From contig OZ024741.1 of NCBI GenBank assembly GCA_964016885.1, positions 190,712,001 through 190,776,000 of the forward strand: a stretch of 64,000 nucleotides of DNA, in the 5' to 3' direction. Shown here piece by piece: positions 115-52,659 of the stretch; within the stretch, counting starts at the first letter, position 1; every line of letters begins with the position of its first letter. Below the pieces are notes generated by a model. It was not told the DNA's origin. It worked only from the letters and a program-made list of their open reading frames with translations, and made no database searches. Origin of the DNA: Eledone cirrhosa (lineage: Eukaryota). Both the position numbers and the translations under genes were made by a program.

Positions 115-204
115 GAAGGAGTTGTGGTAAGGAAACAGATGGATCATAACGCACCAAAGTACTCAATACTTGAGGTAGTAGAGTGGGTAATAGGAACCAG
201 TAAG

Positions 205-298
205 ACCCCGACGGCTGAGCTCAAGCCGTTTCGACGGCTAATTCTGGACTAAATGAAAATTTATCCTGGTATTTAAATAGCCGATCTTCTCAAGGGGT
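205..298 (-). ncRNA. Type I hammerhead ribozyme, U3-A8 variant (left-arm copy)
   Basis: Reverse complement of 2964-3057. Confidence 0.7.
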
Positions 299-1561
299 AA
301 TTCCATATATGGTCAATGTGATTGTCAAAAGTCAGTAGTAATTCTGTGATTGCAAATTAGTAGGAAAGATGGTGGCTAAACCTGCCAGTAGGAGAAAGAG
401 GGGAGGGGTGGAGTAGACCCAATCAAGCGTTGGTAGTGCCAGCTACAGCTGGGCATGAGGTCAAAGAAGATACTGGGGAGGGGGAGGGGGAGGAAGTCGG
501 AACGGTAGGTAGAACAATGAGGAGTAAAAATATATATGAAAGAAAAAATACTGAGGGTGAAGAAAAGCGAATAGGTGTAAAGGAAAAAGTAAAGCAAGTT
601 CTACGACCTAAGTCTCTAGCTATTGTTAGGCTAGATAAATAAATAAAGAAAGAAAGAAAGAAGTAAAGAAAGAAATAAAGAAATAACGAAATAAGTAAAT
701 GAACTAGGTGGGACGGAATAGGCAAGGACCCTTTTAAGAGGTATAAGTACGTAAATCATACGGTGACGGGTCAACAAATGGGGCCAAACTACTAAAGAGA
801 CTACCACGAAATAAATAATAAAGGTTTCTATCCCGGGCCCAATGCCAGCAACCACCCAGTGCAGCAAAGTAAACTAGTACGAGATAATAATTCTGAGTCC
901 CGAAAAAAATATATACTAATGCTAACTCTAAAAGATCTTAAACAAGCTACATGAAAGTTCGTACGAAGTAAAGGTAGGATACGGAAAAATAAATTCAGAA
1001 TCCACCCCGCCCAAAAGAAAAGCGAAGAAAGAAATACTGAAACGAGAAAATAAGGCGTAAGTGCCACTAAGAAATATAGAAGGCACGGAAAATAGTGGGA
1101 GCGGTCGGAAAAAGGGGGCAAGTATCCGGGGTCTAAACCAACTGCTATAAAAAGCGGAGTCCGCCAAATCTATCATAGACTAGGGGAGGGGTGGGGGTAC
1201 TAAGGCTACAAGGGGCCAAAGGGCAGCCTCGGGTGGGCGAGAAAAGACGCCGACAAAGAAGAAGAGCTGGGGTAGAAGGACTAAGTAGGGATGGGGGGAA
1301 GGAATAAAGGAAGCGATAAAAGAATAAAAAGAAGATCTTACGTCTCCCTTGGCAAGCAGGGGTTACCCATTGCAAAATCGGCAAGTGGGGTGTTATAGCC
1401 CTAGTCTACCCCCCCGGGTCATTATGGGGTTTGAGGGCGAGGTAAGTCCTACGCAAGCTATGTTTACATGCAGTAACCAGTTCATCTTTCTTGTTTAGGA
1501 GTTGGTCCGTCGAAAACAGCATTTGTAAAGTTTCCTCCGAGCATAAATTGCACGGACGGCG

Positions 1562-1893
1562 TCCTATATAGGACTTACCGCATGTGACTTCAAGACCCGG
1601 CTATACCAACATAGACATACCTTCCGAAACCCGGCCCGGCGTCACGCCACTACACTTTCGGGCCACATATGGGACCTCAAGGACAACAACATCACCTATG
1701 ATCTCACTTGGAGATTACTGTCTAGAGCCAATTCTTACACGGGAGGACGCCGTCCGTGCAATTTATGCTCGCAGGAAACTTTACAAATGCTGTTTTCGAC
1801 GGACCAACTCCTAAACAAGAAAGATGAACTGGTTACTGCATGTAAACATAGATTGCGTAGGACTTACCTCGCCCTCAAACCCCATAATGACCC
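1562..1893 (+). pseudogene. PLE GIY-YIG endonuclease C-terminal fragment (no start codon, absent from ORF track)
   Basis: Manual translation from 1562: SYIGLTACDFKTRLYQHRHTFRNPARRHATTLSGHIWDLKDNNITYDLTWRLLSRANSYTGGRRPCNLCSQETLQMLFSTDQLLNKKDELVTACKHRLR. Shows YIG, FKxR, IWxLK, CxLCxxE and LLNKxxEL..C.H motifs. Confidence 0.85.
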
Positions 1894-2963
1894 GGGGGGG
1901 GGGGTAGACTAGGGCCAAGGGAGACGTAAGATCTTCTTTTTATTCTTTTATCGCTTCCTTTATTTCCTTCCCCCCATCCCTACTTAGTCCTTCTACCCCA
2001 GCTCTTCTTCTTTGTCGGCGTCTTTTCTCGCCCACCCGAGGCTGCCCTTTGGCCCCTTGTAGCCTTAGTACCCCCACCCCTCCCCTAGTCTATGATAGAT
2101 TTGGCGGATTCCGCTTTTTATAGCAGTTGGTTTAGACCCCGGATACTTGCCCCCTTTTTCCGACCGCTCCCACTATTTTCCGTGCCTTCTATATTTCTTA
2201 GTGGCACTTACGCCTTATTTTCTCGTTTCAGTATTTCTTTCTTCGCTTTTCTTTTGGGCGGGGTGGATTCTGAATTTATTTTTCCGTATCCTACCTTTAC
2301 TTCGTACGAACTTTCATGTAGCTTGTTTAAGATCTTTTAGAGTTAGCATTAGTATATATTTTTTTCGGGACTCAGAATTATTATCTCGTACTAGTTTACT
2401 TTGCTGCACTGGGTGGTTGCTGGCATTGGGCCCGGGATAGAAACCTTTATTATTTATTTCGTGGTAGTCTCTTTAGTATTTTGGCCCCATTTGTTGACCC
2501 GTCACCGTATGATTTACGTACTTATACCTCTTAAAAGGGTCCTTGCCTATTCCGTCCCACCTAGTTCATTTACTTATTTCGTTATTTCTTTATTTCTTTC
2601 TTTACTTCTTTCTTTCTTTCTTTATTTATTTATCTAGCCTAACAATAGCTAGAGACTTAGGTCGTAGAACTTGCTTTACTTTTTCCTTTACACCTATTCG
2701 CTTTTCTTCACCCTCAGTATTTTTTCTTTCATATATATTTTTACCCCTCATTGTTCTACTTACCGTTCCGACTCCCCCCCCTCCTCAGTATCTTCTTTGA
2801 CCTCATGCCCAGCTGTAGCTGGCACTACCAACGCTTGATTGGGTCTACTCCACCCCCTCCCCTCTTTCTCCTACTGGCAGGTTTAGCCACCATCTTTCCT
2901 ACTAATTTGCAATCACAGAATTACTACTGACTTTTGACAATCACTTTGACCATATATGGAATT

Positions 2964-3057
2964 ACCCCTTGAGAAGATCGGCTATTTAAATACCAGGATA
3001 AATTTTCATTTAGTCCAGAATTAGCCGTCGAAACGGCTTGAGCTCAGCCGTCGGGGT
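2964..3057 (+). ncRNA. Type I hammerhead ribozyme, U3-A8 core variant
   Basis: ACCCC-TTGAGAA-GATCGGCTA...TAGCCGTC-GAAA-CGGCT(TGAGCTC)AGCCG-TC-GGGGT. Stems I, II and III all pair; GUC triplet. Confidence 0.75.
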
Positions 3058-3067
3058 CTTACTGGTT

Positions 3068-3103
<36 letters not shown>

Positions 3104-5268: not shown

Positions 5269-5713
5269 TGAATATAAGTCGATAGAGTGCTCAACCGAGG
5301 GAGCCAAATAGTAATAATAATAAATGTGAAGACTAAAATCCAAAGAGGGCTCGATAAAGATAAATATATATCAAATATATAAGAACCCTAGAGCAAATAT
5401 TTATTAAAATAACAGATTAAAGTTGAAGCAAAGAATAGCTGATTTCACCCTTAACGGGATCTTCTGAAACTAAAAAAATCAATCTGTGAACGCAGAAGTA
5501 AATATTTCGAAAAACGTTGCAACCGAAGAAAAATAGGAAGACGATGCTTTGGTTCGTGAAGACGTTCCCTGGCAATGAATGGAAAAAAGCGAACATAATA
5601 CGTCGTTATGTGGACCGCTGAGAACAAATAAACGCAAAGACAAAAGCACGTTTATGGTATAAACTAATATTCTATTTAGGAAAACGAATGATTCTCGGAT
5701 TCGGAGTTAGGAA

Positions 5714-5905
5714 TAATTATTTCTACTTTTGGCACAAGGCCGACAATTATTCCAGTGCATTACTGGTACTTTATTTTATCGACCTCGTAAGGATGAAAGG
5801 CAAAGTTAACCTCGGCGGGATTTGAACTCAGACCACAAGGGGCCGTAACTCTTTGCTGCAAAGCATGGCGTCCGACCCTCCACCGATACTGCCAATCCAC
5901 CGCCC
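5714..5905 (-). mobile_element. tRNA-derived SINE family 1 (near full length)
   Basis: Head GGCGGTGGATTGGCAGTATCGG, box B GAGTTCAAATCC, conserved core and tail. Confidence 0.85.
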
Positions 5906-6702
5906 TTTTACGTCTTGATGTGGTAGCTAAGTATATTTTATGTTTATATAATTACTTATTTGTATAGGTAAGTATACCTTACCCGTATGTTTTGTGGGGG
6001 TACGTATACTTTCTCGTACGTATATATGCTTGTATTTGTTATAGGTATATATATTATATTATATTGGTATGTGTATATATGGTTGTGTGTATATGTGTAT
6101 TTCGTTTTTGTGTGTGTATGCGTGTTTGCAGGTATGTATGGTGTGTATGGTGTGTACTTTGAATTTTGGTATATGTACGTTTGGTAAACATATGTGTATT
6201 AACCTGTAGGTATGTGCGTGCGTTATATACGTTTATATAATTATATGTAGACACACACATATATTTTTATGTGTATTTGTGTATACGTTCGTATGTGTGC
6301 GAGTGTTTATGTCTATGTGCATATTTTTTTGCATGCATGGCATGTGTTTTCGCGTATGCACGTGTATGTACGTATATAGATGTGCGTCTGTATATATTTA
6401 ATTATTATTACTTTAATAACCTCTGTCATTTTCGTTCTACTAATTTATTTACTTTATTCTTAACTCCGAATCCGAGAATCATTCGTTTTCCTAAATAGAA
6501 TATTAGTTTATACAATAAACGTGGTTTTATCTTTGCGTGTATTTGTTCTCATCACTCCACATAACGACGTACTATCCTTGCTTTCCCCCCCCCGTTCATT
6601 GTCAGGGAACGTCTCCACGAACCAAAGCATCGTCTTCCTATTTTCCTTCGGTTGCAACGTTTTTCGAAATATTTACTTCTGCGTTCACAGATTGATTTTT
6701 TT

Positions 6703-6753
6703 AGTTTCAGAAGATCCCGTTAAGGGTGAAAGCAGCGATTCTTTGCTTAAACT
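6703..6753 (+). ncRNA. HHR-like motif with CAGAAGA core and CUU triplet
   Basis: AGTTT-CAGAAGA-TCCC(GTTAA)GGGT-GAAA-GCA...TGC-TT-AAACT. Confidence 0.55.
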
Positions 6754-6868
6754 TTAATCTGTTATTTTAATAAATATTTGATCTAGGGTTCTTATATATT
6801 TGATATATATTTATCTTTATCGAGCCCACTTTGGATTTTAGTTTTCACATTTATTATTATTACTATAT

Positions 6869-7070: not shown

Positions 7071-7400
7071 AGATTTTGAGTTTATGTTGGTTGTATACCA
7101 ACACCTCAGTATGCAGGCTGGAGCACTCGACGAAGTGCGCAGGTTGGTTTGGTTACTCCGGAGTAGTGTAAAATAAAGTTAAATAAAAGTCAAATGATTA
7201 AAATTTAGCTTCGTTTATTACTGCTATATATATTTCAGTGACAGCCACCTTTGGCTGTGACCTCTTCAGGCAGTTCGAATTAGATACTAATTCGAACTGC
7301 CTGAAGAGGTCACAGCCAAAGATGGCTGTCACTGAAATATATATAGCAGTAATAAACGAAGCTAAATTTTAATCATTTGACTTTTATTTAACTTTATTTT
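7071..7400. mobile_element. Short PLE pLTR fold-back (palindrome ~7170-7400, centre ~7285)
   Basis: Near-perfect inverted repeat with an HHR and AATAAA in each arm; (TA)n on both sides. Confidence 0.8.
7296..7350 (+). ncRNA. Type I hammerhead ribozyme (mirror copy 7220-7274 on -)
   Basis: ACTGC-CTGAAGA-GGTCACAGCC(AAAGAT)GGCTGTCACT-GAAA-TATATA-TA-GCAGT, followed by AATAAA. Confidence 0.8.
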
Positions 7401-7416
7401 ATATATATATATATAT

Positions 7417-8528
7417 AGATAAATCTACCAAAAGTTTACGGTAGTATCCAATCCGTATGAAGAACTCAATGTAATCCGGATATCATGAAAAGAGAAGATG
7501 CATTCAAAAACTACTTTCGGTGAAAAATAAACGGAAAACAGAGTCAAGATAAATTAATAAAATAATGAATAAACAAAGAAACAGTTCCTTATATTAAAAA
7601 CATTCATCATTTTACGATCGTTTCTAGGATATATATGTGTTAGAGTTGGTATGCATATTCTATAGATCTATGTACAATATTTATACAAACTATCAGAGGG
7701 AATATACATACCTACACATATATATGCGCTGTCTTCAGAAATAATGATAATTGTTTATTGAAAAAGACAAAGATTCAATACAATAGGTCTGTTTGGGAAC
7801 AGGTTTTGAATTGACCAATAGAGAGATAGTGAGGGTCAGGATAGTAATATAGTAGTAGAAGAACCTTGAATTATGGGTAGAGGAAGGTAGATTTCAGTTT
7901 TGGATGGAAAAGAATATTATGAATGAAGGATTATTTTAGGGAAGAAATAGGTCTTATGCTGACCTCAGAAATAATTTTATTTTTTCATTGAATAAAACCA
8001 ACAAAGATCTAATATATTCTGTCTGTTTGGTAAGAGGTTTAGAATTAACCAATAGAAAGTTAATAATTGGCCAAATGGTAAAATAGTAGTAATTGAAGCT
8101 TATTTTAGGGGTGAAAATAGGTCAGGTGGTCAGTAAAAGGTATACAAGCAGTTGCTGTTATAAAATAAATGCCAATACAAATATCTAAGGTGACTAAAGT
8201 TTTAAGATAAGAATGTTAGTGAAAAAAATACATCTATGAAAAGAATATAAATTAATTTAATTGATGGGTATATTTATATAGATATGATAAATAAGAGTTA
8301 GATGCAGTTGAAAAGTGCTGTTAAAGATGAGGGGAAATTAAAAGAATATAAAAATAATATATATATATATATATATATACTCATACATATATCTATATAC
8401 ATATATATACACATACACACATATATATATATATATATACACTTATATATATACATATATATACATATATATTCACATACACACACACACATACACACAT
8501 ATATATATATATACATATACATATATAT

Positions 8529-8599
<71 letters not shown>

Positions 8600-9225
8600 G
8601 ATATATACATGCATATATACATACATACACATACATTTACACACACATATACACTTATATATACATATAATTATTGGGGGGGGGGGGATTAAATTTATTA
8701 GTGAGAAATAGTAAATATATATAGTTTTCAAGGAACATAGAGTCATAACCTGAAGTTAAAGCATAATATATGTTTACTTAATGGTATCAGTTTTAGGAAA
8801 TGATATTTGTAAGAAGGAAAGCAAAATTATGTAGTTCATCAGTAGTAGAATATTAATTATAGGTTAACTAAATTAAAAATAGTTTATATATTAATTTCAA
8901 AAGTGTATATTAATTAATACTACTATATTACTATCCTGACCCTCACTATCTCTCTATTGGTCAATTCAAAACCTGTTCCCAAACAGACCTATTGTATTGA
9001 ATCTTTGTCTTTTTCAATAAACAATTATCATTATTTCTGAAGACAGCGCATATATATGTGTAGGTATATATATTCCCTCTGATAGTTTGTATAAATATTG
9101 TACATAGATCTATAGAATATGCATACCAACTCTAACACATATATATCCTAGAAACGATCGTAAAATGATGAATTTTTTTAATATAAGGAACTGTTTCTTT
9201 GTTTATTCATTATTTTATTAATTTA
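7417..9225. mobile_element. PLE pLTR/3' region with inverted partner (arms ~7548-7853 and ~8921-9225); tail copies at 1-46 and 15184-15368
   Basis: Reverse-complement arms each contain a long-stem-II HHR; the terminus TAGATAAATCTACCAAAA recurs next to (TA)n or (CA)n. Confidence 0.8.
9028..9171 (+). ncRNA. Type I HHR with ~107-nt stem II (mirror copy 7604-7747 on -)
   Basis: TCATTATTT-CTGAAGA-[9044-9150, ATATATATGTGT/ACACATATATAT pairing]-GAAA-CGATCG-TA-AAATGATGA. Confidence 0.75.
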
Positions 9226-9244
9226 TATATATATATATAAATAC

Positions 9245-10774: not shown

Positions 10775-11245
10775 CTAATTAGGTATTGAGATATTAGCTG
10801 TATACTTTATGGAAAGTTCTATGGGATTTATGCAAGCAGAGCGAAAATAATCCGTACGTCTATTTATTATAGAATTAAAATTAGAGATAATGGTAAATTT
10901 CTCGGCTAGGCAGAGATTACATGTTTTGGATAGGGAAGAATTCTGGTAAGGAAAGGCGTTGTAAACCTTCCTCCAAGATATGTTGTAGTTAATATTTTTG
11001 TCTTTTAAGGACCATATGAGTTCCGAGAGTGCCGTGTTAGTTCTTTTAAGTTGGTATTTAAAAGATGAATTGTGATTATAAAATCTTGCTTTAAAGGAAA
11101 TGGAAGTGGAACCAAAATAGGTAAAAGAATTAGTACCAGTTATAACCTTACATTCATACACTAAATTTTTATCAAGACATTGGTTATTAAGAGGACATTT
11201 AGTTCTAACAGGGAAAAACATGTGCGTCAAAACATGGCGTCCCAC
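10775..11245 (-). pseudogene. PLE GIY-YIG endonuclease domain (5'-truncated)
   Basis: KCPLNNQCLDKNLVYECKV...TYFGSTSISFKARFYNHNSSF...TALSELIWSLKD...CNLCLAEKFTII...INRR. Confidence 0.85.
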
Positions 11246-17496: not shown

Positions 17497-17736
17497 CATA
17501 TATATATGTGTCTATATGTATGTATATATATATATATATATGTGCATGTGTGTGTATGTATGTATTTCCACACATGTCCAAATATATGCGTATTTAAATG
17601 TATATGTGGTAATATATACGTACTTATGTGTATATGTGCTAATATATACGTATCTATTTATCGATTTATGTATTTGTTTATTATTTTTTTGAGTGAGTCC
17701 CTCATTCTTGCTCTTGTGTTGGCATGTAAACAGAAC

Positions 17737-17778
17737 TGCAGACACTAATGTTTCTGGGTATTAGCCATCATCAGTACA
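17737..17778 (-). ncRNA. Compact type I HHR of a solo retrozyme-like element
   Basis: Minus strand: TGTA-CTGATGA-TGG(CTAATAC)CCA-GAAA-CATTAGTG-TC-TGCA; octamer 84 nt upstream. Confidence 0.7.
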
Positions 17779-17858
17779 CGTCACTGTTCACCTGCCAACT
17801 GTCAGAGCTGGTGAATATGTATGCTATTTTCTAAAATATACAGTGACTGATCAGCCTG

Positions 17859-17866
17859 ATTTGCAT
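17859..17866 (-). promoter_or_regulatory. Octamer motif ATGCAAAT upstream of the HHR
   Basis: Exact octamer followed by CAGGCTGATCAGTC, which resembles TAGGCTGCTCAGCC after the octamer at 21347. Confidence 0.5.
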
Positions 17867-17976
17867 ATTAGCAGACTGGCTGATCAGTCAGTTTCCTGTA
17901 TACGAGTGATCAATGGCCGGCTTTGCCATATTCAAATAAAATTAAAAAAACATATATATATATATATATATATATA

Positions 17977-20083
17977 AATTATACAATTATCAAAGTTATG
18001 TTCAAATCATTTTATTGCGGACAATCGTTTCTTCCAAACTTTCGTTTGGAATCATCGGAGCATTAGCAATGTTTGTACATATAATTAACCTCCTATTCAA
18101 CTGAACAATCATATAGATACATATATATTGATGTTGTGAACAACAGTTTCATATTTACAGGGTGGAATGGATGCGACATATATTATACGAGAATTGTACA
18201 ATAATTCAAATTAAAATAACACAGGTATACAAGCATATCAAGCAAAGGAGCTTGTGTATTAAAATTATGGTGGATGTAATGTGAACTGCTTCAAGATGAG
18301 ATACAACTCGCACCACCACTCATTCAAAAATCGCAATCTAGCCTACTCTACTTCTTTATCTAGCTACATACACTCTCTGAAAACTCGGAATAGACCATAT
18401 ACACTTCAATGGGAAGTAATAGATAGGGCTGCATCGTATAAACCACCGAATAAATTGTGTAACTTCTGTCTTCTAGAGACCCATAATATAATCTTTTCGA
18501 GACTTCCTAAATAGAAAATCAGAGGTGTTTTCCTCATGCCAGCACCACTACCGACACTCGTTCCATAACTTTAAACCTAGCTGCTAGTATAACAATGTCA
18601 GATTTGAATTCCTCACCACCATTAACACTTCACCTCTAGGACTTATCAGCCCCCACAGCATCACAATCTTTGATCAGCTCTTTCCTCTACACAACTCCTA
18701 TTTATCTCTAACCTTAAACTCTACAATAACTGTTAGAAATAAACATAAAGTTACCACCTTTTAATATAACTACTATAGCTTACTTATATACAGTAATGGA
18801 TATATAATATGTAGAGAAATTTAATGTAATATGTAATAATAAATTATATATACATTTATAATTAAATATATAAATTAATAGCATTATATATAAGGGATTA
18901 ACTTTTAACATAATATAATGTATATTAATAACACAAGAGATTTAACTAATTGGACCTGTAAACAGCTATACATTTTTCCATAACTTATATCTTATCCAGT
19001 AATGGATAGATAACAATGTAATGAGACCTTTAATGTATTATAGGAAAATAGACTATATTTAAAATTAAATATAAATAAATAACATTATAAGGAGGGATTC
19101 ACTTGTAACACAATATATTATATCTTAGAGCAAAGAATTTAAATAATTGATACTTTCCTATATAATTTAATTTAATTAGGTAGTTACCTCCCCTTACGCA
19201 TTAGCTCCCCTTAATTTTGGATCTCATACTCACTTCCGGAAATTAAACCGTTAGAAAAACTCGCTGTAAAAAAACTCTAATCCATGGATACAATATGACC
19301 AATTTACAATCCATTGCTATAACTAACTAAAAACATTCAATATAAACATTAACTAAAATATAATTTAACATATGTAATGGAAAAGATAACTCTCAACACA
19401 TACACATTTGAACACTACAGAAACTACCATCAAATTACATCCACCATAATTTTAATACACTAGCCTCTTTGCTTGATATGCTTGTATACCTGTGTTATTT
19501 TATGTGATACCTTTGCCATACAGTATTTATTTATGCCTAATACATTTGCTTGTTTCCTCATATATATGACTAACGCATGTGCACCCTCTACACGCTTGCA
19601 TATGTACTGCTAGTGTCCTCATTCTTCCCCAATGCCTCTTTAATTATTAGACTATTCCCTTGTATTATCTGTTGCATGTATTCCACTCTGTGCTTTTAAT
19701 TTTAATTTGAATTATTGTACAATTCTCGTATAATATATGTCGCATCCATTCCACCCTGTAAATACGAAACTGTTGTTCACAACATCAATATATATATATC
19801 TATATGATTGTTCAGTTGAATAGGAGGTTAATTATATGTACAAACATTGCTAATGCTCCGATGATTCCAAACGAAAGTTTGGAAGAAACGATTGTCATCA
19901 ATAAAATGATTTGAACATAACTTTGATAATTGTATAATTTATATTCCTGCTCTGTAAAACACCTGATGTTCTTACATTGAGCTATTTCTCTTACTGGTAA
20001 TAAGGTAGTAATAAATTACTGACCTTCCCTGTTTATAGTTGTTTATAGTATATACATAACTATAAATAGTATCATTATTATTA
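17977..20083 (+). mobile_element. PLE 3' part with GIY-YIG remnant (~18270-18580) and inverted pLTR at its 5' end (17977-18213 vs 19704-19941)
   Basis: FKMRYNSHHHSFKNRNLAYSTSLSSYIHSLK...WEVIDRAASY...CNFCLLE; inverted arms carry the HHR. Confidence 0.8.
19854..19900 (+). ncRNA. HHR with CCGATGA core (mirror copy 18016-18062 on -)
   Basis: TGCT-CCGATGA-TTCCAAAC(GAAA)GTTTGGAA-GAAA-CGATTG-TC, then AATAAA; stem I imperfect in both copies. Confidence 0.6.
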
Positions 20084-20893: not shown

Positions 20894-20998
20894 TCCTTAA
20901 TTTTCGAGATAATATCTCTTCTTCGGAGGGAAGTAAAGTTGTTAAACCAGCGTTCTAAATAGCTTGGCAAGCTATTTAGAAAGCTGGTTTAACAACTT
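20894..20998 (-). repeat. pLTR fragment with HHR-like motif (20894-20930) ending in a 63-bp fold-back palindrome (20936-20998)
   Basis: Minus strand CCT-CCGAAGA-A-GAGAT(ATT)ATCTC-GAAA-AT-TA-AGG; palindrome AAGTTGTTAAACCAGC...GCTGGTTTAACAACTT. Confidence 0.55.
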
Positions 20999-21346
20999 AC
21001 ATCGTTCCTGTGTCAGTGTTGAACAAAAAGGTGACGTGGTTGCCTTAACACCGTATGGCATAAATTCAGGCTGTTCAGTTTGTTTACAAACGAACAAAGC
21101 GACGTTAGCGCCGCTAAACTGATACGTGCATATATGTATGTGTACCTGTATGCATATGTATATATATATGTATATATATATATATATGTGCATGCTACTG
21201 TACGTCTGTATACATATATGTATGTACGTATACATGCATACTTACATTTAAGTAAGTGCCATACTAAGAGTGAGAAATGAAATTTCGTTTTCATTTTGTT
21301 TCAATTTATCGTTTTCGGTATGCCTGACCGATTTAACTCACTCAAT

Positions 21347-21394
21347 ATGCAAATTAGGCTGCTCAGCCGTTAATTTTCATAAGGAAAGTATATA
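21347..21394 (+). promoter_or_regulatory. Putative internal snRNA-type promoter: octamer ATGCAAAT (21347-21354) plus conserved block TAATTTTCATAAGGAAAGTATATA (21371-21394)
   Basis: Both blocks and their spacing are conserved in the otherwise divergent 469-bp family. Confidence 0.5.
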
Positions 21395-21427
21395 CTTTCG
21401 AACGTTCAACTATCTGGCAGATGGGTA

Positions 21428-21472
21428 AACGGTGCTGATGATAGCTAACAAGCTTGAAACTAGTACATCGTT
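21428..21472 (+). ncRNA. Minimal type I hammerhead ribozyme; predicted cleavage after 21465
   Basis: AACGGTG-CTGATGA-TAGC(TAACAA)GCTT-GAAA-CTAG-TA-CATCGTT. Confidence 0.85.
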
Positions 21473-21826
21473 CCTGTGTCAGTGTTGAACAAAAAGGTGA
21501 CGTGGTTGCCTTAACACCGTATGGCATAAATTCAGGCTGTTCAGTTTGTTTACAAACGAACAAAGCGACGTTAGCGCCGCTAAACTGATACGTGCATATA
21601 TGTATGTGTACCTGTATGCATATGTATATATATATGTATATATATATATATATGTGCATGCTACTGTACGTCTGTATACATATATGTATGTACGTATACA
21701 TGCATACTTACATTTAAGTAAGTGCCATACTAAGAGTGAGAAATGAAATTTCGTTTTCATTTTGTTTCAATTTATATATATATGTATGTATGTTTATATA
21801 TATATATATATATATGTATGTATATT

Positions 21827-51501: not shown

Positions 51502-51792
51502 TCAAAACAAATAACGAAACGAAATTAAATTTCGTTTCGCTTCTAACTCACTTTTGTATGACTGACGCTTAAACAATTAAGTTAAAGTGTACATCTACAT
51601 ATGTATACGGAAGTATTAGTATGCATATAAATACACACATGTATACATATGTACATGTACTCAGCTTTTCACTAGACACTTTACAGTGAGTGTCAGCTAG
51701 TCTGTATGTAACCACACAGGCGGACCGGGTTTTAGAGTCATACGAGTTTTCAAGGAAACACATTTCCTCTATTCTCCAGAGGGCCAGACAGG

Positions 51793-51837
51793 AATATTGG
51801 ACTAGTTTCGATGTTATTACATCTCATCAGCAATATT
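51793..51837 (-). ncRNA. Minimal type I hammerhead ribozyme, copy 1
   Basis: Minus strand: AATATTG-CTGATGA-GATG(TAATAA)CATC-GAAA-CTAG-TC-CAATATT; canonical core, 7-bp stem I, GUC triplet. Confidence 0.9.
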
Positions 51838-51883
51838 TACCCATCTTCCGGCTTCTCTGGAGAATTGTAAAAGCACATATCGT

Positions 51884-51943
51884 TATATGCTTTTTCTATG
51901 AAAATTAGTAGTGGGTAGACTAACTTGCATAGAACGTGAGTCA
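51884..51943 (-). promoter_or_regulatory. Putative promoter module: TGACTCA, ATGCAAGT (51923-51930), TAATTTTCATAGAAAAAGCATATA (51884-51907); repeated at +469
   Basis: Homologous in order and spacing to 21335-21394. Confidence 0.5.
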
Positions 51944-52261
51944 TTGTACGCACCGGTTCAGCGGAAACGATAAAAACAAATAACGAAACGAAATTAAATT
52001 TCGTTTCGCTTCTAACTCACTTTTGTATGACTGACGCTTAAACAATTAAGTTAAAGTGTACATCTACATATGTATACGGAAGTATTAGTATGCATATAAA
52101 TACACACATGTATACATATGTACATGTACTCAGCTTTTCACTAGACACTTTACAGTGAGTGTCAGCTAGTCTGTATGTAACCACACAGGCGGACCGGGTT
52201 TTAGAGTCATACGAGTTTTCAAGGAAACACATTTCCTCTATTCTCCAGAGGGCCAGACAGG

Positions 52262-52306
52262 AATATTGGACTAGTTTCGATGTTATTACATCTCATCAGC
52301 AATATT
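52262..52306 (-). ncRNA. Minimal type I hammerhead ribozyme, copy 2
   Basis: Identical to 51793-51837. Confidence 0.9.
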
Positions 52307-52659
52307 TACCCATCTTCCGGCTTCTCTGGAGAATTGTAAAAGCACATATCGTTATATGCTTTTTCTATGAAAATTAGTAGTGGGTAGACTAACTTGCATA
52401 GAACGTGAGTCATTGTACGCACCGGTTCAGCGGAAACGATAAAAACAAATAACGAAACGAAATTAAATTTCGTTTCGCTTCTAACTCACTTTTGTATGAC
52501 TGACGCTTAAACAATTAAGTTAAAGTGTACATCTACATATGTATACGGAAGTATTAGTATGCATATAAATACACACATGTATACATATGTACATGTACTC
52601 AGCTTTTCACTAGACACTTTACAGTGAGTGTCAGCTAGTCTGTATGTAACCATATATAT

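Follow-up and report, generated by a model that had tools for sequence, protein, structure and literature searches.

In newt satellite 2, a tandem satellite of ~330 bp in a vertebrate, an octamer reportedly adjoins the PSE and transcription is said to start ~47 nt before the hammerhead cut, and the schistosome Sm-alpha repeats reportedly carry a tRNA-type promoter with A and B boxes. According to the available parts of the literature, the newt repeat combines a hammerhead with an internal snRNA-type promoter and is transcribed by Pol II (PMC2220036, PMC6765202), and the Sm-alpha hammerhead repeat is a SINE-like Pol III repeat in which the promoter precedes the hammerhead and the upstream unit transcribes the next (PMC6765202). 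The metazoan non-LTR retrozymes are, in the accessible portions of two reports, non-coding units of a few hundred bases with low GC content and one type I hammerhead per unit, dispersed as monomers and dimers in genomes where Penelope-like elements coexist with them (PMC7229834; 10.64898/2026.07.22.740005). Within these portions, their transcription and copying are proposed rather than shown and cephalopods are not used; the main text of PMC7229834, as available, has no internal promoter (“octamer” does not occur, and “promoter” occurs twice, both times for T7 constructs), nor is an internal promoter described in the available part of 10.64898/2026.07.22.740005. The accessible part of PMC6962438 gives no more than a count of hammerheads in a squid. 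Penelope-like elements with pLTR hammerheads are described, in the available parts of the sources, with 5′ truncation, inverted 5′ partners, partial tandems, a preference for (TA)n and a short palindromic stem III (PMC4209133; 10.1101/2021.04.23.441226). A literature search covering mainly open-access and more recent papers listed no description of the superfamily reported below or of an octamer/PSE promoter in invertebrate retrozymes.

The window, which is the whole stretch of 64,000 nt of DNA that was analysed, holds a decayed and truncated copy of a repeat of this kind, here called family C, on the minus strand at 17689-17950. Family C is almost certainly a non-LTR retrozyme: it is a non-coding repeat of ~440 bp, and the features by which such retrozymes are recognised (a non-coding unit of ~150-500 bp, one type I hammerhead and tandem copies) are all found at the level of sequence. 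The element is real and abundant and is a variant of the known retrozyme kind. The parts of the window copy, the neighbouring element and the sister copies in the window are:

17689..17950, minus strand: family C copy, 262 of ~440 bp, assigned by alignment to a natural family C dimer (L010)
17878..17890, minus strand: left arm of a 13-bp inverted repeat, the end of the preceding 33-bp promoter subrepeat (self-match at 66 = 2 x 33)
17856..17867, minus strand: octamer extended by NAG, a match to what host U6/U6atac genes have at -76..-78
17844..17856, minus strand: right arm of the inverted repeat; inside it ATCAGT (17851-17846), which is PSE-core-like and matches host U1/U2/U5 genes at -55..-58
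17818..17823, minus strand: TATA-like box 27 nt past the core, mutated in the window copy (CATACA here, CATATA in family C)
17792..17797, minus strand: TGGCAG, with the predicted start A 17793 at TATA+30 as estimated from host spacing; also the 5′ strand of the outer helix of stem I
17718..17799, minus strand: type I hammerhead motif, with core CTGATGA 17774-17768, stem II 17767-17755, GAAA 17754-17751 and stem III 17751-17742
between 17741 and 17740, minus strand: predicted hammerhead cut, with stems I and II weakened in the window copy
17952..17976, no strand: (TA)n tract at the 5′ junction of the window copy, the usual target type of family C
17972..19944, plus strand: decayed Penelope-like element, inverted arms of 246 bp, C-terminal part of GIY-YIG at 18281-18514 (plus strand)
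20998..21773, plus strand: copy of sister family B, 466-bp unit, 5′ junction within 2 nt of the predicted cut site
51504..52652, minus strand: sister family A, 469-bp unit, 2.4 copies

The original prediction had placed a solo member of an octamer-plus-hammerhead superfamily at 17737..17891. The element is there, but it is longer than was noted. The octamer ATGCAAAT (17866-17859, minus strand), followed by CAGGCTGATCAGTC, and the TGGCAG word had been read correctly, and CTGATGA starts 84 nt from the end of the octamer, just as was said, and 92 nt from its start; the corresponding spacings in the arrays are 88/100 nt from the octamer start, equal to 80/92 nt from its end. While the core and the spacing of the hammerhead stood, its description as compact did not, as stem I is long (17718-17799 in the window copy, z -3.39). 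Alignment to the natural dimer covers 17950-17689 and leaves out two of the three 33-bp subrepeats, and the 3′ end lies 52 nt past the predicted cut, compared with the usual ~143 or ~175 in family C. At least 39 other genome copies resemble the window copy at 90-95% identity in a DNA search in which the best 40 of 1,757 first-look candidates were scored. No family reading frame was seen at the window copy, and Rfam gave no hammerhead match there, only chance microRNA-hairpin matches on the inverted repeat. With its TATA-like box changed, 5 of 7 pairs in stem I (7 of 7 in family C) and no downstream unit, the window copy is probably inactive; taken singly, it is ordinary debris of a retrozyme system.

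The system itself is large. Octamer-NAG-N70..95-CTGANGA matches four times in the window, where 100 shuffles gave 0.00, and the genome-wide search for the octamer at this distance from a hammerhead, which had been suggested as a check, gave 30,310 matches against 23 for the reversed-pattern control. At least seven related families were recognised (A, B and C, plus D, E, F and G), so that the superfamily is abundant and diversified, as had been supposed; one motif search among the families D to G gave 1,718 matches (control 0). Family C aligns to family B in the promoter block only and does not align to family A at E<0.1. The 19-nt ribozyme motif of family C has 2,742 exact matches in the genome (control 0), and the spacing of same-strand neighbours gives a unit of 432-444 bp; pieces of the family have a median divergence of 5.2% from the column majority. 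A search for tandem versions found 59 dimers with both motifs intact, and among these matches, which are never adjacent, there is no array of more than two units; the dimer pattern requires two intact motifs and overlaps may go unreported. The label “solo” therefore suits family C.

The octamer had been described as lying between the arms of a 13-bp inverted repeat, and in the window copy this repeat is indeed perfect (arms 17890-17878 and 17856-17844). Across family C it varies, with 13/13 pairs in 6 of 81 copies and 12/13 in 25 of 81. Each 33-bp subrepeat consists of an octamer-like word and then a palindromic CTGATCAG word, and where two subrepeats adjoin, their palindromic ends face each other and form the inverted repeat. 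It came about as a side effect of the triplication of this promoter module and has no separate meaning. A role of its own, whether as a functional hairpin or as the end of a transposon, was considered and rejected, given that origin and its rare perfection. Among 60 copies with the upstream anchor, three subrepeats are present in 47, two in 7 and one in 6. At three loci (L022, L019, L029) the same octamer-plus-core subrepeat has also grown into a minisatellite, with about a dozen copies at most.

CUGANGA, GAAA and NUH occur in this order with stems I-III, stem I being open, as in a type I hammerhead, and stem III is near-palindromic in family C. We regard the motif as real chiefly because stems I, II and III stay paired while their letters differ between seven families (nine copies). 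Position 10.1-11.1, usually a paired G-C, is U-A in the window copy, an A-A mismatch in most family C copies and U-U in family B; U-U at this position is reported as tolerated in the available part of PMC3088659. Such mismatches recur in families B, C, D2 and F (U-U, A-A, G-G, A-G) and may lower cleavage so that uncut templates survive. The monomeric hammerhead fold lies 6.2-6.9 kcal/mol above the lowest fold, and at this cost the predicted cleavage may need a dimer; dimer dependence is reported for other animal hammerheads (PMC4209133, as far as available). In families A-D the helix enclosing the ribozyme reaches beyond the predicted start by 15-22 nt on the upstream side, and TGGCAG is therefore no independent sign of that start but, as a strand of the outer helix of the ribozyme, at least partly structural.

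The insertion geometry was mapped from the first 100 listed matches of a short motif downstream of the cut, which gave 97 pieces after three duplicates had been merged. Counted from the cut, the 3′ ends fall at +138..153 in 46 pieces and at +166..184 in 24, run into the next unit in 9 and lie elsewhere in 18, 13 of which stop at an inserted SINE-like repeat. This repeat splits the family C unit at an AT-rich palindrome, about +105 to +126 past the cut, in 13 of the 97 pieces, possibly marking an insertion hot spot. Next to the 3′ end lies (TA)n in 38 of 46 pieces ending at +138..153 and in 21 of 24 ending at +166..184. The 5′ ends are scattered and an inverted family piece occupies the 5′ junction in 47 of 97; back-to-back pairs within 1 kb number nine, facing pairs none, among the first 100 listed matches of the 19-nt ribozyme motif (counted by eye). 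Fixed 3′ ends, variable 5′ ends, inverted 5′ partners and a (TA)n target are Penelope marks in the available part of 10.1101/2021.04.23.441226, and GIY-YIG elements are plentiful in this genome (10,596 candidates, 150 of them scored). Mobilisation of family C by Penelope-type enzymes is highly probable. At one locus (L077) an inverted piece of family C and a U6atac retro-copy form a direct fusion, which looks like the result of co-insertion by template switching.

The form of the template is less certain. The predicted cut is spanned by 68 of the 97 pieces, 16 of 97 are longer than one unit, and 15 of 32 dimers run beyond the predicted start; the 32 comprise 30 of the 59 dimers taken by list order (three duplicates skipped) and two earlier ones, and four of the values overshoot because palindromic subrepeats align into the inverted partner. 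A third ribozyme is absent in 10 of 10 dimer loci. As copies exceed one unit in a family in which no array of more than two was seen, a circular monomer is the simplest reading, and on balance we lean towards a circular RNA template. Linear templates would explain the same lengths, with 5′ ends representing cut sites and copies of more than one unit made from uncut multimers or by template jumps without any circle. We consider this doubtful. In its favour, 5′ ends within 10 nt of the cut are enriched 2.9-fold (24 events, p 4e-5) and those at the upstream cut 5.5-fold (4 events, p 0.007), the family B copy in the window starts at the cut, and the ribozyme is weak as a monomer by its predicted fold. 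The excess of 5′ ends at the cut is, however, broad (+14..-10) and may reflect stalling of reverse transcriptase in stem I. No source array of more than two units was seen for family C, although such arrays could have decayed or collapsed in assembly, and the 15 dimers just mentioned run beyond the second cut as well as the predicted start. An RNA-editing scar was looked for in 200 family C pieces, in which A>G shows no excess over T>C (1.06, p 0.57).

For the promoter block, the snRNA genes of the same genome (U1, U2, U5, U6 and U6atac) served as the comparison set. ATG[CG][AT]AAT[TG]AG at -76..-78 goes together with TATA at -30 in the U6 tandem cluster, in the two U6 genes with the highest scores and in the top U6atac gene, and this U6-type element is present in the retrozyme cassette. 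Left out of the promoter matrices were 14 of 27 U6 loci and 11 of 12 U6atac loci, probable retro-copies with neither element, and the 11 near-identical U6 loci of the cluster were entered once. The Pol II promoter matrix was built from 5 of 15 U1, 4 of 14 U2 and 5 of 12 U5 fetched loci, chosen as distinct types. YCART lies at -55..-58 in all 14 promoters used, followed by a TATA-like word at a distance of 25-28 nt; held-out classes rank first in 13 of 14, with held-out host genes scoring 5.0-19.4 bits. On this matrix the family C core reaches 12.0 bits and the core of the window copy 11.4 bits, with rank 1 of 908. The corresponding ranks of the sisters are F 1, G 1, E 8, E2 13, B 24, D 26, B2 92, D2 93 and A 186, the core being weaker in A, B, D and E. 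In family C the distance from YCART to the TATA-like word, 27 nt, is within the range of host Pol II snRNA genes, and 20 of 25 nt of its core region are identical to one U2 promoter (L062; shuffle p 0.0016 with the core held fixed).

Across five retrozyme families, eight copies show YCAS at octamer+16, and 24-27 nt beyond it comes a TATA-like word. From octamer to TATA they measure 40-43 nt (8 of 8 copies), against 46-48 nt in host U6 genes, so the U6 spacing is not kept. The best score for the octamer-NAG element is 2.3-7.1 bits in the 14 host Pol II promoters compared with 12.5-17.3 in the retrozymes; the octamer matrix rests on four genes, and the rank 1 of the retrozymes in 11 of 11 cases is partly circular. 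Read as sequence, the block combines an octamer element of U6 type with a core and spacing of U1/U2/U5 type; the retrozyme combination of octamer, core and TATA was seen in none of the host genes examined. Host Pol II snRNA genes have AATTAAA near -90 and a distal element near -260; neither, judged by eye, was seen in the cassette. A word resembling that behind host U1/U2/U5 genes, similar to a 3′ box, occurs near +130 of family C, but inside the copied part. As an observation on the host, its snRNA genes share a small vocabulary of a U6-type octamer element at -77, a Pol II core at -57 and a TATA-like word at -30 in both classes; they also share a distal word near -260, and U1/U2/U5 genes are followed after 10-20 nt by a word common to them.

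We think that this block probably works as an internal promoter. From host spacing, 17793 is the predicted start of transcription, at a distance of 53 nt before the predicted cut. The choice of polymerase in insects turns on small PSE differences (available part of PMC1761439), and by this logic the U1/U2/U5-type core indicates Pol II. T4 runs are absent after the predicted start in 7 of 7 segments against 11 A4 runs, a partly circular count, and this absence indicates Pol III. Taken alone, Pol III would transcribe the repeat from a U6-type promoter and end at the first T-run, leaky termination would yield longer templates and the oligo-U end would prime reverse transcription. Among the host genes examined the octamer-NAG element is confined to Pol III genes (four genes), the shuffle probabilities for the missing T4 multiply to 0.006 for C, D, F and G, where segment ends are set by insertion ends, and 24 of 97 3′ ends lie inside the T-run at +166..184. 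These points are countered by the core sequence and the core-to-TATA spacing, which are of Pol II type, and by the T4 runs of the promoter block itself, which are copied in 46 of 97 pieces, so templates read through T4. Moreover, the commonest 3′ end (+138..153, 46 of 97) has no T-run, T4-5 occurs at +274 in 7 of 9 family A copies, the segment ends for A, B and E were picked with knowledge of the T-run and the related families are not independent. We judge a purely Pol III-driven cycle unlikely.

Rather less probable, in our view, is that the block does not work as a promoter, being either the remnant of a captured snRNA promoter or a signal at the RNA level, and that the repeats are transcribed solely by read-through from flanking DNA. 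It would fit this view that 5′ ends form no peak at the predicted start (ratio 1.25, p 0.38 in 97 pieces; 1.29-1.45, p 0.24-0.40 in dimers), that helices cover this position, and that family C and its sisters are of common ancestry, by which a shared spacing can be inherited. Yet the boxes stay in phase (octamer+16, TATA 24-27 nt on) though spacers and bodies have diverged beyond alignment, and exactly the octamer-plus-core module is triplicated in family C (47 of the 60 anchored copies). The host elements, finally, sit upstream of the transcribed sequence and hence act as DNA.

We return to a working promoter and propose, as the likelier course of events, a retrozyme with a snRNA-type promoter block, ribozyme processing, a circularised template and Penelope-type insertion at (TA)n. 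The block would likely drive transcription of the repeat, with SNAPc, a POU/octamer factor and TBP starting RNA synthesis ~53 nt before the cut; Pol II would be slightly the better candidate for this step, with Pol III close behind. The ribozyme would cut read-through RNA to unit lengths, which likely circularise. Read-through of a dimer would yield a cut-to-cut monomer carrying the promoter as RNA, so that every full copy could regain its promoter. A Penelope-type reverse transcriptase/endonuclease likely copies the units into (TA)n sites; nicks in the (TA)n DNA, in one strand or in both, might provide the primers for reverse transcription at the AU/U-rich sites +143 or +166..184, and synthesis might run more than once round the unit.

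That the window copy is instead the leftover pLTR of an ordinary coding Penelope-like element is very improbable: the insertion marks are of Penelope type, a GIY-YIG fragment lies 330 bp away and Xenopus retrozymes are related to pLTRs (available part of 10.64898/2026.07.22.740005), but the cassette was never the terminal ribozyme behind a reading frame in the 30 + 20 GIY-YIG loci examined, which are only samples, family C copies run into the next unit and not into coding sequence, matches to 22 Penelope proteins occur at 3 of 170 family C loci (a lower bound, as the set missed the neighbour's clade), and the neighbour's terminus is found at 9 of 200 family C loci (five insertions, the window one included) against 6 of 198 other loci. 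Being about as common elsewhere, this terminus indicates a separate insertion that shares the (TA)n target. The neighbouring Penelope-like element contains no CTGANGA on either strand between 17972 and 19944; its GIY-YIG fragment scores 0.91-0.94 in the atlas, is not named by Pfam and was missed by the tblastn set of 22 proteins. Fragments related to it lie at ~1589-1798 and 10886-11095 of the window. Five GIY-YIG loci with long frames have a common ribozyme of another kind without the octamer. No autonomous partner Penelope with shared terminal sequence appeared among the 50 GIY-YIG loci, a small sample of the 10,596 candidates.

Compared with the metazoan retrozymes in the accessible parts of the reports, which family C resembles in unit, ribozyme, GC content, dispersal and company, it is almost free of arrays and has a triplicated promoter module. 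It shares with Penelope-like elements the insertion traits named at the outset, yet it has no reading frame, and the sampled coding elements end in other ribozymes without the promoter block. In contrast to the newt satellite, family C is dispersed and its host is an invertebrate; its boxes match those of the host itself, mix U6-type with U1/U2/U5-type elements, come with a TATA-like box in addition and are found in no fewer than seven families. From Sm-alpha, as Pol III SINE-like repeat in the available part of PMC6765202, it differs by its upstream snRNA-type boxes. We tentatively suggest, as a reading with less than an even chance, that the whole superfamily uses a hybrid promoter assembled from host parts and carried through an RNA circle, which would give self-transcribing copies inserted by Penelope enzymes, and that family C tripled the module and reached thousands of sites with no need of satellite arrays. 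If the hybrid-promoter reading is true, capture of snRNA promoters would, together with newt satellite 2, be a recurring rule for the expression of animal retrozymes. Family C offers sharp tests through named boxes matched to host snRNA genes, a predicted start and cut, and its insertion geometry. As a by-product, the promoter elements of host U6 and U1/U2/U5 genes are defined, which is useful for small-RNA expression in this animal.

Further traces of related elements occur in the window. A palindromic stretch at 20930-21000 lies immediately ahead of the family B copy, whose cut site is at this junction, and resembles the sequence behind a Penelope frame at one locus (L177). Hammerhead cores without octamer, of the CTGA[AT]GAGGTC type, lie at 7247-7323, 23403 and 61091; they are found as well in four GIY-YIG loci (L146, L169, L182, L183) and are probable Penelope-associated ribozymes. 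Long, near-perfect inverted repeat pairs of 219-818 nt at 487-2781, 7549-9226, 5308-6866 and 190-3072 look like back-to-back Penelope-type insertions.
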